Virus record (IMG/VR): IMGVR_UViG_2600255062_000003
Span: 32,001 to 96,000 of that record
Length of the DNA stretch: 64,000 nucleotides
Strand: one strand, 5' to 3'
Origin: a virus
Lineage: Duplodnaviria; Caudoviricetes
Part shown: one piece after another, positions 8,949-43,371 of the stretch
How positions within the stretch are numbered: position 1 is the stretch's first letter
Layout: every line of letters begins with the position of its first letter
The notes under the pieces: generated by a model
Database searches by the model: none
The model's input: the letters and a program-made list of their open reading frames with translations, nothing else
What the model was told of the DNA's origin: nothing
Position numbers and translations under genes: made by a program

Positions 8949-9063
8949 GCGACCATCTCCCTTGTTTCATATTACGATTATATTTGTTTATATGTTATTT
9001 GTCAACATTTAATGTGATTATATTAGTTTATATGTAGTGTGTGTGATAAAACCTACATTTTAC

Positions 9064-19294: not shown

Positions 19295-19306
19295 GAACGT
19301 TTGTTC
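19295..19306. promoter_or_regulatory. LexA/DinR (SOS) box
   Basis: GAAC-GTTT-GTTC matches Firmicute GAAC-N4-GTTC. Confidence 0.75.
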
Positions 19307-34274: not shown

Positions 34275-35273
34275 CTATTCAGTCTGTGACTCTTTAAATT
34301 CTCGCACAGCGTCATTCAATTCATCTAATACACCAACCATCATCTCAACATGGTTCTTTGTAAAGTCGGTAACCTTTTTGCCTTTTCCAAGTCCATTTTC
34401 AATGATCTCTGTAACTGCATCGCCTTTTCCATTTTCATGTAGGAATCTGCCAGCAGCAATGATATTTTCCTTTAGATCTTCAAAATCTAAAGCTTGAGAC
34501 TTAAGTGTCTCTTTCTGCTCCTTATAAGTTACAGCTTTAATTCCTTCAGCTTTTTCTTGAAGTTCAATTGCTTTTACAATTGCTTCTTCTAAGGCTTCAG
34601 CAGTGAATTCTTTGATTCCAGTTTGAATATAATCAAATCGACTACGAGCAAAAAAGTCATTCGTTTCAGCTAAGAATGCCGATGATTTAATCACTTGATT
34701 TTTCTCGTCAGTTCCATTGGAACGCAAGTGAACTACGATATCACTATTGTCAATGATTGGAGCCAATGCGCGCTTGTCACCTTTAGGCCATACTTTACCT
34801 TGTTTATCCTCTGTTTGGTGAGCAATAAACACTACAGTAAATCCTGCGCCAATCAATTTGTCAATCTCTTCCCAATAAGCTGTTTCATACTCTTTCCACA
34901 AGCCAAAACCATCTCGACCAGAAGCAATTGTGTCGGAATCGTATTTGTCGCAGATATATTTTGAGCAATATCTTGCAGATGCTTCTACTTCATCAAAAAT
35001 GATGGTCTGATAAACTTCCTTAGCTTTCTCGACAGTAGACTTGTGGGTTAGTTGTCTGTTAACTTTTTTAAAATCAGCCCAATTGTTAATTGCAGCAAAT
35101 GGTACTCCAGCAATCGCTCCCAAGCCTTTCTCAAATCCAAGATAATATGGTTTTTTAAAGCGTGTAGCTTGTTTCGTTTTGCCTAAGTTATTGCTTCCGT
35201 AAATAGTTATGATTTTTCCTTCGAGTCCTTTTGCTACTACTGATACCTGTGGCTTAAAAATATCTAATGACAT
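34275..35273 (-). CDS. AAA ATPase (YorG/Sak4-like recombination protein)
   Basis: GSNNLGKT, IIFDE, FIAH. Confidence 0.85.
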   Translation of the reverse strand: MSLDIFKPQVSVVAKGLEGKIITIYGSNNLGKTKQATRFKKPYYLGFEKGLGAIAGVPFAAINNWADFKKVNRQLTHKSTVEKAKEVYQTIIFDEVEASARYCSKYICDKYDSDTIASGRDGFGLWKEYETAYWEEIDKLIGAGFTVVFIAHQTEDKQGKVWPKGDKRALAPIIDNSDIVVHLRSNGTDEKNQVIKSSAFLAETNDFFARSRFDYIQTGIKEFTAEALEEAIVKAIELQEKAEGIKAVTYKEQKETLKSQALDFEDLKENIIAAGRFLHENGKGDAVTEIIENGLGKGKKVTDFTKNHVEMMVGVLDELNDAVREFKESQTE

Positions 35274-35389
35274 ATGTATAAAATCTCTCCCTAATTTATA
35301 TTATTATAGATTAGGCGACCAGCGAACCAGTCGCCAGTATTTCTACTTAAGTATATTTTTCATTATTTCTAACTGATTGTTTACTATGA

Positions 35390-36391
35390 TTAAAACGGCA
35401 GGTCATCATCAGAAATGTCAATGGGTTTTCCATTATCAGAGAATGGGTCTTTATTGAATTTATCATTTGCGAATGGGTCGGGATTACCGAATCCATTATT
35501 ATTAGATTTGGATTGTTCATTTACTTTATTCTTTTTTTCTTCTTTTTTCTTTTCAATGGCAGCATCACGCTTTTTGAGAGCTTCTCGAATAAGTTTTACA
35601 TCAAACGCATTTTTATCGTCTTCATCAAGAGGGGGAGTTCCTCCATCAACAATGTATTCTCGCACGTCTTTTCGGTCAATATCTTCTTGTGGTACGCCAA
35701 ATCCAACTTCAATCTGTTTTTTTGTAACGATTGTTTGATTTACAATCTCACCAAATACTTTAACTGTTTGCCCTTTTTCATATGTATTTTGAACATAACT
35801 GACCGATGTAGGATTGGCGACAGTTACTTCAAGAGGAAAAATCTTTTTAATATCATTCTCCTGATCTTGATATCCCACAACATAACCTTTCAGGATCAAT
35901 CTACCCGTTTCTTCTCCGTTTCGTTGTTCTTCTCTTAATCCTGCAACTGCCATTTCTAGAGTAAATCGAGCCTGTGGTTCAAAAACATCATTAGATTTTA
36001 GTCGATTAACAAATTTCGCAGACAGTTTCGGATATGACTTCCACTCTCCATCTTGCCCTACATACTCATTTCTTTCAATTTTCCCGTTCTCGTTGTTCCC
36101 GCTAGTTTCAATACGTACCTTTTCTGCATTTTCAAGACCATGAGTATTAATAGTTTTATATTCATCGCGAATTGTGAGATAACCTTTGTATAGTCCACTA
36201 ATTTCATTTTTCTTTGTCATTTTATACGAGAAAATGTTTACTGTGTGAACAGAGTCGTTTACTTGAATATCAATTTCTCCTGAAATTGCATCTTTTCCGT
36301 TAATTTTATTTTCTTCAAAACGAATATCCTTTACAAGTCCCTCGATGTGAATATTGTTAATACCTTGCTGAAGCGTTTTTTCGTTTGCCAT
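35390..36391 (-). CDS. single-stranded DNA-binding protein (YorF-like)
   Basis: Acidic DDDLPF C-tail; next to AAA ATPase. Confidence 0.8.
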   Translation of the reverse strand: MANEKTLQQGINNIHIEGLVKDIRFEENKINGKDAISGEIDIQVNDSVHTVNIFSYKMTKKNEISGLYKGYLTIRDEYKTINTHGLENAEKVRIETSGNNENGKIERNEYVGQDGEWKSYPKLSAKFVNRLKSNDVFEPQARFTLEMAVAGLREEQRNGEETGRLILKGYVVGYQDQENDIKKIFPLEVTVANPTSVSYVQNTYEKGQTVKVFGEIVNQTIVTKKQIEVGFGVPQEDIDRKDVREYIVDGGTPPLDEDDKNAFDVKLIREALKKRDAAIEKKKEEKKNKVNEQSKSNNNGFGNPDPFANDKFNKDPFSDNGKPIDISDDDLPF

Positions 36392-36509
36392 TAATAAATC
36401 TCTCCTATTTTATGTATTATTGTTTTTATTTGATATATCTACAAATATGCAACAATAATCTAAATAGGTGGACTTCGCATAGACGCAATATCTATGTTCT
36501 CACATCCTC

Positions 36510-37415
36510 TCAAAATCCCCATTCATTAGTGTTTGTTTCCTCCTCAAATGGTGATCCAATTGCATTAATCGAATCAAGCTTATCTATATCGTATCTATTC
36601 GAAGCTATGGATCTTACATTTCCTCCAGTTATCTCTAGTCCTTTTACTGCCGATCCACTTATAATGGTATGTCCATCTATAATTTTTAGTGGAACATAAT
36701 TGAGTATGTTGCCATGAACTCTAAGAGTGCTACCTTTTGAAATATTGTTCTTAAAATAATCATATACTTCTTTGTTATATATATAAAAGTTGAATGGGAC
36801 AACATCGCAATCGTTAGAGTTTCTATTTATTACTCTTGTGTCGACTGTATACTCCCCATTTTCATTTAATGGGATAGCATCGACATAAACAATTTCATGA
36901 CTAAAGAAAGCTTCTGGATGTTTATTTTTGAAATTATAGTTTTCTAAAACATATATTTCTCTAATCACATATTGCTCTTGTGAGTTTCCTTTATACTCGT
37001 TCAATTGCAATGAACCCTTTACAAGCACATTCGAGCCATCTTTAAGATGCTGTTCAAAGTATTCTATAGCGTCCCATGCAATAAGTGAGAAGTCATCATT
37101 GATATTTCCACAACCAAGATTTACTTTAACTTGATTTGCATAACGATAATTACTGTATTTGCTGTTATATAAATCATCCCATTCAACTGTTAAAGATTCA
37201 TCTGCATTTGTTCCACGTTTAAACAATTTTACATTACTCGTTTTCGATCCAAACAACTCAACATATACAATTGAACTTTCAGACACTTTGATTCCAAATT
37301 GCACTCTTTTCCATTTGCCACTTTCTGTTTGACCTTCTGTATATGCTCTTTTATCGGCTAATCCAACAACAGTTCCTCGAAGAACAAAATTTCCGTATGT
37401 AGGAGATAAATTCAT
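36510..37415 (-). CDS. SSB-like OB-fold paralog
   Basis: F.L.G.V...G..V.V.G pattern twice; acidic aromatic C-tail. Confidence 0.55.
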   Translation of the reverse strand: MNLSPTYGNFVLRGTVVGLADKRAYTEGQTESGKWKRVQFGIKVSESSIVYVELFGSKTSNVKLFKRGTNADESLTVEWDDLYNSKYSNYRYANQVKVNLGCGNINDDFSLIAWDAIEYFEQHLKDGSNVLVKGSLQLNEYKGNSQEQYVIREIYVLENYNFKNKHPEAFFSHEIVYVDAIPLNENGEYTVDTRVINRNSNDCDVVPFNFYIYNKEVYDYFKNNISKGSTLRVHGNILNYVPLKIIDGHTIISGSAVKGLEITGGNVRSIASNRYDIDKLDSINAIGSPFEEETNTNEWGF

Positions 37416-37532
37416 CTTTCTCTTCCACCCTATTTATTCAAAGTTGCTACAATATAATATCTAATCAACTTCAGCACATCCTCTCTTATTTTATTTACAT
37501 TTATATAATCACACATTACTGTGTGTTATTTT

Positions 37533-37609
37533 TGGTGGGTCTTAAGGGACTCGAACCCCCGACCAATCGGTTATGAGCCGACCGCTCTAACCAACTGAGC
37601 TAAAGACCC
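37533..37609 (-). tRNA. tRNA-CAU, most likely Ile2 (lysidine), CCA encoded
   Basis: GGGTCTTTAGCTCAGTTGGTTAGAGCGGTCGGCTCATAACCGATTGGTCGGGGGTTCGAGTCCCTTAAGACCCACCA; resembles Bacillus tRNA-Ile2. Confidence 0.9.
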
Positions 37610-37673
37610 TTATGTATTGCCTTTTGGTAACTGTCTATCTTGATAAAAGTATTCTTTTACTTACCACTTTCTA

Positions 37674-37702
37674 AATATATCATCTTTAATTGTTATTGTC
37701 AA
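37674..37702 (-). promoter_or_regulatory. sigma-A promoter upstream of tRNA
   Basis: TTGACA-17 bp-TATATT with extended TG. Confidence 0.75.
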
Positions 37703-37773
37703 TATATGATTATATTTGTTTTTATATTAATCATTATGTAAGTTAGCCGAACCTATATGCTCGGCAAAGCTAT

Positions 37774-38154
37774 CTAAGAGTAGTAAGCCAATTCTAATAA
37801 GGTTGTATATCTTCCTTGTTCAGAGTAAACATCATAAATTCTTTCAGGGTTATCCGTTCGGAATTTACTCAGTTTAAAGTCCATAACCTCTTCCTGACAT
37901 AATCTTTCAAGCGCTTCACGACTATTTAATCTATAGTCATTTATAAATTCGCTTTTATTTTTATAACCTCGCGTATCGATATTGTATTTCCATTTATTCG
38001 TTAAGTATATATTTTCATACCCCGGGTTGTTGCAACAATGCACGAACATATCTTGTCTTTCATCATCTGTACGTAAAAGGAATTGTATCCCATAAATGAT
38101 GTAATCCGCAGTGCTGGGAATCTCAAGCTTACTTATTAATTCGTGATACTCCAT
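37774..38154 (-). CDS. hypothetical protein
   Basis: RBS GAGGAG. Confidence 0.7.
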   Translation of the reverse strand: MEYHELISKLEIPSTADYIIYGIQFLLRTDDERQDMFVHCCNNPGYENIYLTNKWKYNIDTRGYKNKSEFINDYRLNSREALERLCQEEVMDFKLSKFRTDNPERIYDVYSEQGRYTTLLELAYYS

Positions 38155-38311
38155 ACGCTTCTATCTCCTCTGTAGTTGTCAAATTCATACTATACTTTAA
38201 TTATACGTTATTGTTATAATTAGGCAACATAAATAAGTAGTCTACAAATCTTTGTTGACACTATAAATTTGTGGAAATAAAAACATTTAATGTGTCATAT
38301 TTTGTCGAATA

Positions 38312-38323
38312 GAACATTTGTTC
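38312..38323. promoter_or_regulatory. LexA/DinR (SOS) box
   Basis: GAAC-ATTT-GTTC. Confidence 0.65.
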
Positions 38324-38369
38324 TTATCTTTAATAAATTGTATCATTACCAAAAGGCAATATCAAGTCA

Positions 38370-38750
38370 TTATTTTCTCTTTCTTCTTTTATTAAATAAT
38401 TCTCGTACCAAGTCTATATGTACGGCAGCTATGTCCAAACATATCTTCCTCATTTTATCCAGATATACTTTATGCTTTATCTCATCTATTTCTTCAATAG
38501 CGTCTAGGTTGACTACAGATCCTCGGTCAACCCTAGTGAAATTTTCCAATTGACACAACAATTCTACGGTTTGTTCTATCCTTACTTCATCTATGTATTC
38601 ACCGTGTGCTGTTTTATAAACCACTTTCGATTTACCATTCTTTGTTTCTGTGTCGAATCCTTTTATATCTTTTACAGGCAGCATCGTAGCTTTATTGCTA
38701 AGCTTTTTACCTTCTCTTTTCACTACTTTCAATCTGTCGTCTGGATTCAT
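38370..38750 (-). CDS. stand-alone LytTR DNA-binding protein
   Basis: FTRVDRGSVVNLDAI LytTR signature; no receiver domain. Confidence 0.85.
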   Translation of the reverse strand: MNPDDRLKVVKREGKKLSNKATMLPVKDIKGFDTETKNGKSKVVYKTAHGEYIDEVRIEQTVELLCQLENFTRVDRGSVVNLDAIEEIDEIKHKVYLDKMRKICLDIAAVHIDLVRELFNKRRKRK

Positions 38751-38772
38751 GTATTCACCTCATAATCACTTT

Positions 38773-38812
38773 CTTTATCTTACTACCACCGTTCAAAGGT
38801 AGTAAGATAAAG
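38773..38812 (-). other. perfect 15-bp stem-loop between agrD and lytTR
   Basis: CTTTATCTTACTACC-10nt-GGTAGTAAGATAAAG. Confidence 0.8.
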
Positions 38813-38822
38813 TTATATAGTT

Positions 38823-38939
38823 TTATTTTAATTCACTTGGTACTTCTTCGCTATGAATAAGTGTCCAACTTGCAGTACTGACAACAGTAACAGCAAGCAA
38901 TGACAAAATAGAACCTGTTAGCATCATAATTTTCTTCAT
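38823..38939 (-). CDS. agrD: AgrD-like cyclic lactone autoinducer precursor, 38 aa (MKKIMMLTGSILSLLAVTVVSTASWTLIHSEEVPSELK)
   Basis: Translated by hand; RBS GGAGGTG; amphipathic leader + ASWTLIH core + EEVP tail; right after agrB. Confidence 0.88.
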   Translation of the reverse strand: MKKIMMLTGSILSLLAVTVVSTASWTLIHSEEVPSELK

Positions 38940-38941
38940 TT

Positions 38942-39466
38942 CTATTCACCTCCCTTCAGGCGAATAAGCAGCAAACATTGCACTAAAACTGCGAAATTTG
39001 AGATAGGGTTATCAAAAGCATATATTATTGCAACTAAAGATAAAGAAATAATTTTGAACCAAATAAAGTTTTTTTCTTTTACTCGTGTTTGTTTTTCAAT
39101 ATTGCTTGGAGCATAAATTAGTACTAATGCTAAACTTACTAAAAACATGAGAAAAGTATGGTCATTTAGATATATAGCTATTTTCGAAATAACAATAATA
39201 GTCAATGAAGAAAATACAATGCAAGCTTCGGCTGATCTAAAATGAAAACCACCTGAAAACATTCTCAATGATGAGAAACTTATTAGAGTAATCATAACTT
39301 CATAAGTATTATTCAAAAACAAAGAAGCAAACAACACTATGATAATAGGTAATAAGTTTGAAATAACAAACTTCATAGAATATCTTACAATTTGAGTTGA
39401 TGGCAATTCCTCTGGATATTTATTTTTCAAGTAATTGCTTATATCATCCGCTAGCTTGTCAATCAA
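38942..39466 (-). CDS. agrB: AgrB-like AIP-processing membrane peptidase
   Basis: LRMFSGGFHFRSAEAC catalytic His/Cys motif, YAP; TTG start after GGAGGTG. Confidence 0.92.
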   Translation of the reverse strand: MIDKLADDISNYLKNKYPEELPSTQIVRYSMKFVISNLLPIIIVLFASLFLNNTYEVMITLISFSSLRMFSGGFHFRSAEACIVFSSLTIIVISKIAIYLNDHTFLMFLVSLALVLIYAPSNIEKQTRVKEKNFIWFKIISLSLVAIIYAFDNPISNFAVLVQCLLLIRLKGGE

Positions 39467-40100
39467 ATTCACACCTCCTTTGCTTCCTATATTCAATTAT
39501 CAACAAAGTGCTAAAACAAATCAGCCAAAATAACATACTCCATAATATATTACTAAATATTGACACGCTCATTACCGATATACCAAATATAGAAGCAATG
39601 AATAACAAAGCATTAGATACGCTTAATTTAAACTTTATTGTGTATTGATAAGGCAGCGTTGTAAACCAGAGTGCTCGTCTTCTTAGATACAAACTTATTA
39701 AAATTATTAGAATATCCCCGATTAGTTGTACCACCGAACCATATGTATTTGCCAAAAAATCAAATGGTTTTTTCATAATAATCATCAGTATAACAGCAAC
39801 CAGTCCTTGTACTATAAATTGGAATAAGAAAGCTATACCAGAAATTCTTAATGATGAAAGCAGAGAAATTCTAAATATTACTATAAGAAATACTGTCATC
39901 ATTATTATATTTACTATAGGAGCAATGTTAGATGGCAATTCATAATTTTTGTATAAATATGTGCCTACCGATATACATAGACTAGCAACTATAAATTGAA
40001 TCCAATACTCTTTCAATTTCACCTGATACATCCCAAACCCAAATATAAAAATTGCGATACCATCTAACATTGAAAACATTATGTATTTTACCGTTTCCAC
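39459..40100 (-). CDS. multi-pass membrane protein resembling an AgrC sensor domain without kinase
   Basis: ~6-7 hydrophobic segments; first gene of agrBD operon; no HisKA/HATPase. Confidence 0.7.
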   Translation of the reverse strand: METVKYIMFSMLDGIAIFIFGFGMYQVKLKEYWIQFIVASLCISVGTYLYKNYELPSNIAPIVNIIMMTVFLIVIFRISLLSSLRISGIAFLFQFIVQGLVAVILMIIMKKPFDFLANTYGSVVQLIGDILIILISLYLRRRALWFTTLPYQYTIKFKLSVSNALLFIASIFGISVMSVSIFSNILWSMLFWLICFSTLLIIEYRKQRRCEFD

Positions 40101-40147
40101 TAACTTATCCCCCGTTATATAAACAAATATAATCGCTTTATGTATTT

Positions 40148-40176
40148 AATATAACACCTACATATGATGCTGTCAA
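40148..40176 (-). promoter_or_regulatory. sigma-A promoter of the agr-like operon
   Basis: TTGACA-17-TATATT; 17-bp repeat at 40118-40134 just downstream. Confidence 0.75.
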
Positions 40177-40212
40177 TACATTTTTCCATAAAAAAAGTAG
40201 AATAAGATATAC

Positions 40213-41187
40213 TTATTCTACTCTAGGATATACGCGTTTTATTGTTTCAATATTAAGAAAGTCTCGTGTGTATGTTGTGCTAAAATAAATTTCTCCATCC
40301 TTGCTAGTAGTATTGTAATGCTTACATATAGCATTTATATCGCTACTGTCCAATTTTCCTTTTTTCACGTAAATATCTTTCGCCTTTTTTAACATCCCTG
40401 AATTTCTTAAATCATATGGCGACAACTTCGGTAAATTTAATTTTACAGCAAATTTAGTTACAACTTGAGATATTAATGTTGATTTTACTTGTTCTTGTTT
40501 ACTGCTTTTTATAATGTAATCACTCTCTTTTAATTTGGCCTCATCTCTTTTGGAGCTACCTTCGCCAAGATTAGATTTGTAGGTAGTAGCCTCATTGGCT
40601 CTCTCTAGTGCCACAACAAGAAAAGGACTAATCTCAATAGACCTTTCTTCAATATCTCCATATGATCCGATATTTTTTAAATGAGCTATTTTATTTTCTT
40701 TATCTATATCTGTTATTTTAAGATTTATCAACTCAGAATACTTACGTCCTATTATCCCCTCAAAGACACCTTGTATTATCGCAACATCTCTATCGCTTGC
40801 AATCTGACTTAAAGCAAGTTTCAAAGCATCCTCGCTTATGAGAGTTTGCTGCGGTACAAATTTTTCAAAATACTTTGATCCTCCTATACTTGCTAAAGGA
40901 TTGAGTTTATCTTTTCTTAGTCCATGTGAACAAGCCCAATCGATATAAGATCTCAGTATTGATCCATAGTTGATTGCACTATTAAGTTTAGTGGGAGAAA
41001 GATAATAAATAACTTCTTCAATCTCCGCTAGTGAGAAATCATAAAGATCTTTACCTAATCTTTTCTCTATCTTACATGCGCGTTTTAACTTCAACTCATA
41101 GTTTTTTTTGGTTGTTGATCTTAGTTCACTCAGAAATCTTTCCTTTATATCTTTGTTATATAGCTCATCTTGATAAATATTATTCAA
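40213..41187 (-). CDS. tyrosine-recombinase-fold protein, SPbeta YopR/MrpR-like lytic-cycle repressor
   Basis: YNKDIKERFL...EK.LGKDLYDFS N-terminus; degenerate GRKYSEL and YDLRNSG; follows YopQ-like gene. Confidence 0.78.
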   Translation of the reverse strand: MNNIYQDELYNKDIKERFLSELRSTTKKNYELKLKRACKIEKRLGKDLYDFSLAEIEEVIYYLSPTKLNSAINYGSILRSYIDWACSHGLRKDKLNPLASIGGSKYFEKFVPQQTLISEDALKLALSQIASDRDVAIIQGVFEGIIGRKYSELINLKITDIDKENKIAHLKNIGSYGDIEERSIEISPFLVVALERANEATTYKSNLGEGSSKRDEAKLKESDYIIKSSKQEQVKSTLISQVVTKFAVKLNLPKLSPYDLRNSGMLKKAKDIYVKKGKLDSSDINAICKHYNTTSKDGEIYFSTTYTRDFLNIETIKRVYPRVE

Positions 41188-41190
41188 CTT

Positions 41191-42516
41191 TTACACCTCT
41201 TTGACTATATTTTCAAAATGTTTAATGATCCCATTTTGTGCGCGAACAGAAGTATATACTCTTTTTGCTTCTAACATATCTATCAATTGGGCATCCTCTT
41301 TTAAATTTAGACCATCAATTGTATTTTTCAAAAGATCAGGATCAATACTATCTCCATATTTATCATTCATTCTTTTTGCGACAACTAAATACCCTAGAAA
41401 CATCAAGGGATGATTAATATAGGTGTCATAATAGTTTTTGGGGTTCTCAATAAACTCATCAACATAGATACTTATCAAAATCCCAAAATATTTAATTAGA
41501 TAGCTGGCTGTTTTTTGATACTCTAAATATGTGGTTGGATTAAAAGTTTTTTCAATCCCTAGATTAATTATGCTAAAAGTCGTGAGTTGACCCGCTTCTC
41601 TGTTTGGTTTAGTGGTGGATGCTATTCTGATACCTTTAAGTTCACTGTTAGGATTTTGCTGCAATTCTTTAACTACATATGAGGACTTTTCCTCTGAACC
41701 CAGCTCTCTTTTTCTTTCTTTACTCAAAACATTTATTGTATTGATTTGTGCAAAAAATTTAGCTGAAGTCGCAGCATCGTACGTTCTTATGGACAGCTCG
41801 AACCAAAAGTCTAAGTCCTTCTTTGCACTCATTGCTTTAACTACGGCCTGCAAACGATGGAAGCCATCCAATATACTTATGGTTGCTCCTTTGTTTATTA
41901 TCAGTATATGTTCTTGTGGTATCCACTCTACCGGCTCTGATTCTTGACTATAGACATTTAATCTTATTGTATCTGTTAAATAATCTTTATTAATTAACTT
42001 ATCTGCAATCTTATTGACAGAAGCTCTGTTTACAATTGGTGTTTCTATGATTCCGTCATCTCTGTTTCCTTTAAATTTCATACCGCGTTGAGATCTCGGA
42101 TCGTATACAATCATTTGAGATTCAAACATTTTATTCAAAAGTTTAACTGAGATTTTTGATGAGTAACTTCTTTCGTCTATTTGTATTGCTTCAAATTCTA
42201 ATGGTAACTCAAGTTTTTCTTCAATAAATTCATTTGCAACATGTTCTTTAGCAACTCGCAATTCTTCGGCTGTAAAGTAATCTAAAGGATCAATCTGCCC
42301 AAATACCCCATTTAGCACTTCGGTTATAACGCATAATAAACTTGAACTTATTGTACTTAAATGCTTATTTTCGGTCATTATCTCCGTAAAGACTCCATAG
42401 GGAACACCAAACGAATTTAATCTATCGTTAAGTGCCAATATTTTCTTTCTTTCTGTTTTATGGTTCTCAATTAATTCATATATAGCTCTTTCCAGCTCAG
42501 AACGATCAATTTTCAA
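41191..42516 (-). CDS. DndB/DGQHR-like protein (SPbeta YopQ-like)
   Basis: SQRG, ILDGFHRL, FFAQIN. Confidence 0.78.
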   Translation of the reverse strand: MKIDRSELERAIYELIENHKTERKKILALNDRLNSFGVPYGVFTEIMTENKHLSTISSSLLCVITEVLNGVFGQIDPLDYFTAEELRVAKEHVANEFIEEKLELPLEFEAIQIDERSYSSKISVKLLNKMFESQMIVYDPRSQRGMKFKGNRDDGIIETPIVNRASVNKIADKLINKDYLTDTIRLNVYSQESEPVEWIPQEHILIINKGATISILDGFHRLQAVVKAMSAKKDLDFWFELSIRTYDAATSAKFFAQINTINVLSKERKRELGSEEKSSYVVKELQQNPNSELKGIRIASTTKPNREAGQLTTFSIINLGIEKTFNPTTYLEYQKTASYLIKYFGILISIYVDEFIENPKNYYDTYINHPLMFLGYLVVAKRMNDKYGDSIDPDLLKNTIDGLNLKEDAQLIDMLEAKRVYTSVRAQNGIIKHFENIVKEV

Positions 42517-42582
42517 GACACTTCACCTCATTACTTAATAATATAATTATATCACATAAATATAATTAATATACCAATTTAT

Positions 42583-43371
42583 CTAACGCTTTCTTATCTC
42601 ATCAAGCAATTTATGGTCTACATTCCCTTCATTTATCAGTTCCCTTAGAAGAGATTGCGCGTCTTTCAATGACATCGAATCAATCAACTTATTAATTTCA
42701 CTTTTAACTTTTTTCTCGCAAGTGTCACAAAATAACTTTTCGCTAGCCTCAAACTGAACATAACATCTATCATACTGACAAATTTTATCTCCCACTCGAG
42801 TTGAATTATATTCTGCCTGAATCATCGCATTACGCCAACTCAAATTTTTACTTTTTAAAGATTTAATTGAAGGTTTTAACTTTAATTCATCGTATTGTTG
42901 TCTTGTTGGTATATAGCCCAATTCCTTAATTGAAATTTTCAAGTCAGAAATCATAGTATCAATATCGATATATTTATTTTTAAGTTTAACTTCAGCTATA
43001 CACGCCATTTTTTCAATACCAAATCTGTCACTTATATATTCCCAACTTGGAGTATATTTTTGTTCTTCGTAACTCTTTTTATCGATATAACCATAAGTAA
43101 TATTAAGTAATTTAAAATTTTGAATAATTTGAATTTTTGTTTTATTCAATTTATATTCGTCTTTAGAAGGAATCTTTGCGATTTTCAGGAAATCTCTGAA
43201 TGTTATCTTATTTTTTCGGCTATAGGTATCCCAAGCAACTGTCTTTTTTTTATCTCTAAATTGGTCAAATAAGTCAGCAGTAAGATAACCACCTGCTTGT
43301 TTTGCAGCTTTCTTGGCCTCTTCAATAAAACTATCCTCTACTTTATTTAGCACTTTATCACCTCTCCACAA
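42583..43371 (-). CDS. protein with homing-endonuclease-associated HTH repeats
   Basis: Repeats such as LGYIPTRQQYDE...PS...SWRNAM; C-terminal Cys motif. Confidence 0.6.
   Translation of the reverse strand: MWRGDKVLNKVEDSFIEEAKKAAKQAGGYLTADLFDQFRDKKKTVAWDTYSRKNKITFRDFLKIAKIPSKDEYKLNKTKIQIIQNFKLLNITYGYIDKKSYEEQKYTPSWEYISDRFGIEKMACIAEVKLKNKYIDIDTMISDLKISIKELGYIPTRQQYDELKLKPSIKSLKSKNLSWRNAMIQAEYNSTRVGDKICQYDRCYVQFEASEKLFCDTCEKKVKSEINKLIDSMSLKDAQSLLRELINEGNVDHKLLDEIRKR

Follow-up and report, generated by a model that had tools for sequence, protein, structure and literature searches.

How a peptide of the agr type could act on a DNA-binding domain in the absence of any kinase or receiver domain to connect the two is the question raised by a four-gene cassette of the virus record IMGVR_UViG_2600255062_000003. 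The cassette encodes a membrane protein, the peptidase AgrB, the peptide precursor AgrD and a stand-alone LytTR DNA-binding protein, and lies in a stretch of 64,000 nucleotides (the window) corresponding to bases 32001-96000 of the 171,352-bp record, which is complete according to CheckV and is a large SPbeta-like Paenibacillus prophage. We read the cassette as a phage-borne copy of a widespread, phosphorelay-free agr variant whose peptide would report recent infections, and give this reading a probability of roughly one half (about 0.5); the identity of the cassette itself we regard as nearly certain.

All cassette parts are encoded on the minus strand, starting directly after a YopQ/MrpR-like gene pair (Table 1). 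The preliminary description of this DNA had listed a promoter, a membrane protein, agrB, agrD, a 15-bp hairpin and a stand-alone LytTR gene, and all of these are present where it placed them or close by. The perfect 17-bp repeat that it reported between the promoter and the first gene was also recovered, and the location immediately downstream of the repressor pair is now backed by PF22822/PF22823 and DndB/DGQHR matches. The first three genes are tightly coupled, with the likely TTG start of agrB overlapping the stop of the membrane-protein gene and the agrD start located two bases past the agrB stop.

Table 1 Features of the kinase-less agr-type cassette and its flanks, in order of transcription (positions refer to the window).
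Feature	Position	Strand	Evidence or remark
YopQ-like protein, 441 amino acids, DndB/DGQHR domain, first gene of the repressor pair	41191..42516	-	PF14072 E = 8.5e-9; TIGR03187 DGQHR; phrog_5732 E = 2e-88
MrpR/YopR-like master repressor, 324 amino acids, tyrosine-recombinase fold	40213..41187	-	PF22822 85.9 bits; PF22823 44.6 bits
Intrinsic terminator 3' of the MrpR-like gene	40194..40224	-	13-bp stem followed by a T-run; kept in relatives
Cassette promoter, TTGACA-17-TATATT, extended -10 TG	40148..40176	-	11/12 consensus matches; conserved in all relatives
Repeated 17-mer GATTATATTTGTTTATA, SPBRE-like, in the 5' leader	40118..40134	-	perfect copy between -10 box and ribosome-binding site
Seven-helix membrane protein, 213 amino acids, candidate sensor of the autoinducing peptide, no kinase domain	39459..40100	-	no Pfam family; phrog_15604
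AgrB peptidase, 174 amino acids from TTG at 39466 (open frame reaches 39496)	38942..39466	-	PF04647 E = 5e-24
AgrD precursor, 38 amino acids, predicted ring SWTLI (Ser lactone)	38823..38939	-	TIGR04223 28.8 bits (cut-off 19)
Perfect 15-bp hairpin between agrD and the LytTR gene, no U-tract	38773..38812	-	-21.9 kcal/mol, z = -5.3
Receiver-less LytTR DNA-binding protein, 126 amino acids, LytTR domain only	38370..38750	-	PF04397 30.5 bits (cut-off 22.6)
Control region, possible output	38200..38365	-	P1, LexA box, CGACA tandem, P2
Promoter P1, TG-extended	38337..38365	-	directly after the LytTR gene
Perfect LexA (Cheo) box GAACATTTGTTC, GAAC-N4-GTTC	38312..38323	-	just downstream of P1; conserved in relatives
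CGACA-N5-TGACA tandem	38293..38307	-	downstream of the LytTR gene
Promoter P2	38227-38200	-	second promoter of the control region
Conserved 126-amino-acid protein of no known family	37774..38154	-	first gene after the control region; no Pfam/PHROG match

The AgrB protein carries the residues of an agr peptidase, His75 and Cys82, seven residues apart, a spacing identical to that of the Staphylococcus aureus AgrB pair His77/Cys84. In AgrD, the Pro of the EVPSELK tail follows a Ser at a distance of 10 residues, and in a canonical Paenibacillaceae AgrD a Cys likewise precedes the Pro by 10 residues. Because the Ser register matches that of this canonical AgrD and the ring of the Paenibacillus polymyxa autoinducing peptide (AIP) was measured at five residues (PMC12180512), we predict the lactone ring SWTLI, which had also been proposed by analogy with clostridial AgrD in the preliminary description. 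The ring types predicted in relatives are SWTLI, SWTFL, SWTIL, SWTLV and SLIFI, and we find it quite probable that a cyclic peptide is made.

The regulator lacks the receiver of AgrA and consists of a LytTR domain only. Its profile aligned with the LytTR domain of AgrA (E = 5e-6), and its AlphaFold2 model, with a predicted local distance difference test (pLDDT) score of 92, had AgrA and ComE as top Foldseek matches. The same search detected both the receiver and the LytTR domain in a canonical Paenibacillaceae AgrA. A histidine kinase of the AgrC type (HPK10, HATPase_c_5) is missing from the cassette; moreover, neither a HATPase_c_5 (PF14501) kinase nor a receiver domain was detected in the whole 171,352-bp record, in which profile searches returned one AgrB and one LytTR protein, so that the term kinase-less, originally applied to the operon, extends to the entire prophage. 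With no kinase core and no receiver, phosphotransfer is impossible within the cassette. Between agrD and the LytTR gene, relatives have a hairpin of different sequence at the matching place. The regulator of one chromosomal cassette (L021:6304-7026) has 240 amino acids and two LytTR stretches, again with no receiver domain, and may be a tandem LytTR form.

The closest relatives of the membrane protein, from Paenibacillus peoriae and P. polymyxa, share at most 79% identity with it. A profile search collected 203 cluster representatives of its family, the best 150 of which are no longer than 237 amino acids (mostly 202-237) and never fused to a kinase, and no meaningful Pfam family was found in 74 scanned members. 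The AlphaFold2 model (pLDDT 77) displays seven membrane helices. In the ESM Atlas the nearest non-self folds were HATPase_c_5 sensor kinases (TM-score 0.66-0.71, residues 1-211); PDB searches with the model (Foldseek, VIA-align) retrieved generic helical bundles only, and a language-model atlas search with the protein retrieved Bacillota clusters without names only. Judging from these predicted structures, the membrane protein is AgrC-sensor-like in fold only, not in sequence. Under an assumed topology with the N-terminus outside and the C-terminus inside, which agrees with the positive-inside rule, conservation is highest in the three cytoplasmic loops, among them FTTLPY at residues 146-151 and FRIS..SSLR at residues 76-85, and lowest in the outer loops, within the phage clade as well as in the wider family. 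This pattern suits a receptor, with a variable face for the ligand and a conserved face for the partner.

The membrane protein might instead be an accessory for maturation, export or self-protection, with the LytTR protein acting as an ordinary early phage regulator set by its expression level alone and the peptide being sensed elsewhere or not at all. Its lack of sequence homology to AgrC sensors would fit such a role, as would the tight coupling of its gene to agrB and agrD, from which the hairpin sets the LytTR gene apart, and in S. aureus AIP maturation does need a further membrane protease, MroQ (bioRxiv 10.1101/516914). The family alignments, however, revealed no invariant His and no protease-like motifs, for which reason an MroQ-like protease role was set aside. 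A bare LytTR domain, moreover, has no input domain of its own, its gene was found together with that of the membrane protein in all full contexts seen, and the distribution of variable and conserved loops, together with AgrC-type kinases as the nearest folds, is better suited to a receptor. We consider the accessory role rather improbable, and that the membrane protein is a sensor gating the LytTR protein slightly better than an even proposition.

The 17-mer GATTATATTTGTTTATA of the operon leader occurs 13 times in the window at up to 2 mismatches, against 0.14 expected, and 12 of the 13 copies share one orientation, the sole inverted copy being that of the cassette leader (40118). This copy is also placed downstream of a -10 box, unlike the other inspected copies of the window, which lie about 5 bp upstream of TTGACA -35 boxes on the minus strand; examples of the sites are those at 8976, 37708, 54313 and 60084. 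In three relatives the 17-mer of the leader differs from that of the window, yet belongs to the repeat family of the respective phage (11, 7 and 21 copies, compared with 0-1 in controls), and in all three it again runs against the orientation of most other copies. The SPBRE repeats of SPbeta, among them one in the aimR promoter, are bound by MrpR (PMC10516654). By analogy, the 17-mer is probably the operator of the MrpR-like repressor, which would place the cassette promoter in the regulon of the master repressor, and the operon is probably silenced by that repressor in lysogens and switched on at infection or induction. A scan of six other cassettes for direct repeats found none of the 9-bp type associated with LytTR autoactivation.

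The repressor genes upstream are those of an SPbeta-type lysogeny module, in which an MrpR/YopR-like repressor follows YopQ and an element is repeated across the prophage. The MrpR-like protein and the YopR homologue encoded by phi3T share 32% identity. AimR was not detected with the PF22871 profile in the whole 171,352-bp record nor in 9 related proviruses (0/10 records), in line with the non-arbitrium system inferred in the preliminary description.

Immediately downstream of the LytTR gene, a control region that is conserved leads to a conserved 126-amino-acid protein and then to the replication genes, and this region is the likeliest LytTR target and a candidate output of the cassette. The LexA box behind P1 makes the early genes that follow the cassette look SOS-controlled; two further LexA boxes are located in the window at 19295 and 45507. 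A CGACA-N5-YGACA tandem was found exactly once per related locus (window; L003, L005, L008-L017, L026), always 20-140 bp past the LytTR stop, and over the window it had 2 matches compared with 0.2 expected. The tandem is unlike the classical LytTR site. The heptamer TTCGACA, considered as a regulon-wide motif, was not enriched (7 matches and 5.8 expected in the window) and was discarded. The 126-amino-acid protein lies behind the cassette in most related prophage loci (for example L003, L005, L008-L010, L013 and L014), with 32-51% identity where detected, and is not encoded behind chromosomal cassettes. A role as an early regulator of the phage is possible.

In addition to the prophage itself, we surveyed the distribution of the cassette, counting only inspected contexts with enough flanking sequence. 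The order membrane protein, AgrB, AgrD (a peptide of about 40 amino acids) and LytTR was present in every one of them: in related SPbeta-like proviruses, in another prophage where a serine recombinase and a CI/Cro/antirepressor region flank the cassette, and at plain chromosomal sites, in one case between spoIIR and prmC. Among 201 sampled Paenibacillaceae species genomes, the membrane-protein family was found in 126 and AgrB in 137, with nearly always equal counts per genome, the listed coordinates being adjacent. This cassette type is chromosomal in most of the sampled Paenibacillaceae, often in several copies, and a lysogen host (G001) has one chromosomal copy in addition to one in a prophage. 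About a dozen genomes contain, instead or in addition, a second and higher-scoring class of AgrB; the one such locus that was checked is a canonical agrBDCA with a HATPase_c_5 kinase and a receiver-plus-LytTR regulator, the type studied in P. polymyxa (PMC12180512, PMC13700820). A nucleotide search with the cassette against 50,697 phage records gave no match. The cassette is therefore a recurrent unit and a common agr-type locus of Paenibacillaceae chromosomes, not a phage-specific one, and the phage-own communication system of the preliminary description has to be revised to this extent.

The wide chromosomal distribution bears on a second explanation, according to which the cassette is cargo for host manipulation, its non-cognate cyclic peptide interfering with or listening to agr-type systems of the host, whether the canonical AgrC/AgrA locus, which in P. 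polymyxa governs antibiotic production, or the kinase-less cassettes of the chromosome, and its LytTR protein acting on host genes. In staphylococci, it is well established that AIPs of different types cross-inhibit. This explanation gains weight because hosts, such as G001, have chromosomal copies and because the canonical agr system of P. polymyxa is functional, with antibiotics under the control of its peptide (PMC12180512, PMC13700820); the membrane protein is, in addition, classified by PHROGs (phrog_15604) under morons. If our reading of the operator is right, however, the operon would be off in lysogens, a timing ill suited to manipulating a host, and the cassette retains its own sensor and regulator genes, which mere interference would not need. 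Nor does the cassette resemble recent host copies; it diverges together with the repressor block. All related proviruses examined have the cassette at the same position, where YopQ, MrpR and the cassette diverge in step (33-66% identity to the window), whereas the AAA_24 gene of the replication region is 84-90% identical among the same relatives, indicating that the cassette is part of a fast-evolving immunity block and not a recent capture. From the HNH-repeat protein to the 126-amino-acid protein (34275-43371), identities between the L003-L026 relatives are only 24-66% (up to 71% for agrD), and by sequence comparison this block appears as a sharply bounded, fast-evolving immunity region next to the AAA_24 gene. 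Host manipulation is, on balance, unlikely, though it is the main alternative.

A further explanation is that the cassette genes are decaying or inert passengers that no longer serve a function. However, the four frames are intact here and in relatives at protein identities of only 24-79%, and gene order, promoter, position of the putative operator and hairpin have all been conserved, which renders this explanation very improbable.

Under the favored interpretation of the cassette as a phosphorelay-free agr variant reporting infections, AgrB would use its His and Cys to process the 38-residue AgrD into a five-residue Ser-lactone in which the SWTLI ring carries a short tail at its N-terminus. 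Encoded at the place of AgrC in other agr loci, the seven-helix membrane protein would sense this peptide through its variable outer face, and its conserved cytoplasmic loops would directly hold or release the bare AgrA-like LytTR protein without phosphotransfer. The sigma-A promoter and the leader operator would allow the repressor to silence the operon in lysogens and the operon to be on at infection or induction, and with this timing the peptide could serve as a report of recent infections, much like arbitrium in SPbeta. The LytTR protein would then act on the SOS-controlled promoter region downstream, behind which the early and replication genes lie. That this output bears on the choice between lysis and lysogeny is a tentative proposal, and we advance more tentatively still the general form of it, in which SPbeta-like Paenibacillus phages would take this decision by a cyclic lactone peptide, a seven-helix receptor and direct gating of a LytTR protein, and not by arbitrium.

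Several observations weigh against this interpretation. The alignment of the membrane-protein profile with AgrC of phiCDHM1 or of a canonical Paenibacillaceae locus reached a probability below 1% (hhalign), the resemblance of the predicted folds could stem from a generic seven-helix bundle, and a search for longer forms, which counts as weak evidence, revealed no fusion of the membrane domain to a kinase or to LytTR. Receptor-ligand co-variation is not obvious, since an identical ring is predicted for the window and for the L005 group, with no more than 54-58% identity between their membrane proteins. The sole basis for identifying the 17-mer as an operator is the analogy with SPbeta, and upstream of the cassette -35 box, where only the terminator of the repressor gene is present, there are no direct repeats of the LytTR type. 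The commonness of the cassette on chromosomes implies that its native job need not concern phage decisions, and we found no open-access paper that recognizes the LytTR partner or tests the cassette.

To our knowledge, chemical signals enter the lysis-lysogeny choice of phages by only two general routes, peptides of the arbitrium type (RRNPP) and eavesdropping on autoinducers of the host. A cyclic peptide read at the membrane under an SPbeta-type master repressor would, if true, constitute a third, and the phosphorylation-free signaling route that it employs would also be used by most Paenibacillaceae chromosomes. With the cassette present in about 60% of the sampled species genomes of this family, which includes plant-growth-promoting and antibiotic-producing strains, an answer to how the peptide acts on the DNA-binding domain would extend well beyond one prophage. 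The parts of the cassette are small and amenable to genetics, and the predicted peptide can be synthesized.

Among known systems, the closest is that of gp44-gp47 of the Brevibacillus phage Abouo, with the phages Davies and Emery as further cases; in Abouo it consists of the same four genes in the same order, likewise within the lysogeny region of a temperate phage. Abouo gp44 belongs to the membrane-protein family (hhalign probability 99.6%) and gp47 is a LytTR-only protein of 122 amino acids (L001:4660-5028, PF04397 29.4 bits). In these phages AgrB, AgrD and possible AgrC homologues without HATPase_c were described by Hargreaves et al. in 2014 (PMC3901668), so that kinase-less agr cassettes of phages had been noted before. 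Abouo, Davies and Emery, however, are not SPbeta-like: these unrelated phages of 45 kb have a classical integrase and a CI/Cro region, and the Abouo peptide differs from the AgrD of the window in that neither Ser nor Cys occupies the canonical ring position. The AgrD-like peptides of Abouo gp46 (L001:4528-4656) and of L022:6186-6308 both lack a Cys or Ser there and have in common a conserved Lys in a FK(F/G)..G motif; that they use another ring chemistry, for example a lactam, is pure speculation. Both gp47 and its family phrog_15081 are labelled 'peptidase' despite the LytTR match of gp47, a label that looks like a propagated annotation error.

With canonical agr (agrBDCA of S. aureus, agrABCD of P. 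polymyxa) the cassette shares AgrB, the ring-to-tail register of AgrD, the AgrA-like LytTR domain and a membrane protein that adjoins agrB and has an AgrC-sensor-like predicted fold. It differs in having neither a DHp/GHKL kinase core nor a receiver domain, in a Ser in place of the Cys as ring nucleophile, in an AgrB from a separate subfamily that scores lower than canonical Paenibacillaceae AgrB, and in a consensus promoter with a repressor-type operator instead of an AgrA-activated P2 promoter. The agr3 locus of the Clostridium phage phiCDHM1 is similarly phage-borne and has the order sensor, AgrB, AgrD, the membrane protein of the window occupying the position of AgrC; phiCDHM1, however, encodes a full AgrC kinase (HATPase_c_5) and no regulator, whereas the window has a sensor-only protein and a LytTR regulator of its own.

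The likeness to streptococcal LytTR systems drawn in the preliminary description stands in part. Streptococcus mutans HdrRM and BrsRM, whose signaling is assumed to run through direct contact between proteins without phosphorylation (PMC6193735), also encode a receiver-less LytTR regulator with a membrane protein. In those two-gene operons, though, the regulator gene comes first, opposite to the order in the cassette, and autoactivation occurs through direct repeats of 9 bp, spaced by 12 bp and located roughly 10 bp upstream of the -35 box, of which none was found in the cassette; their membrane proteins come from other families, with no known peptide ligand and no AgrBD.

Arbitrium (AimR/AimP/AimX of SPbeta and phi3T), finally, is the comparison invited by the genomic position. 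Its linear hexapeptide is taken up and bound by a cytoplasmic TPR receptor, whereas the cassette would produce a cyclic peptide sensed at the membrane, and it lies downstream of the repressor genes where arbitrium lies upstream. Both are nonetheless peptide units situated beside yopQ-yopR in SPbeta-type phages, and the arbitrium promoter contains the repeated element of the master repressor (PMC10516654), control by which is probable for the cassette as well.

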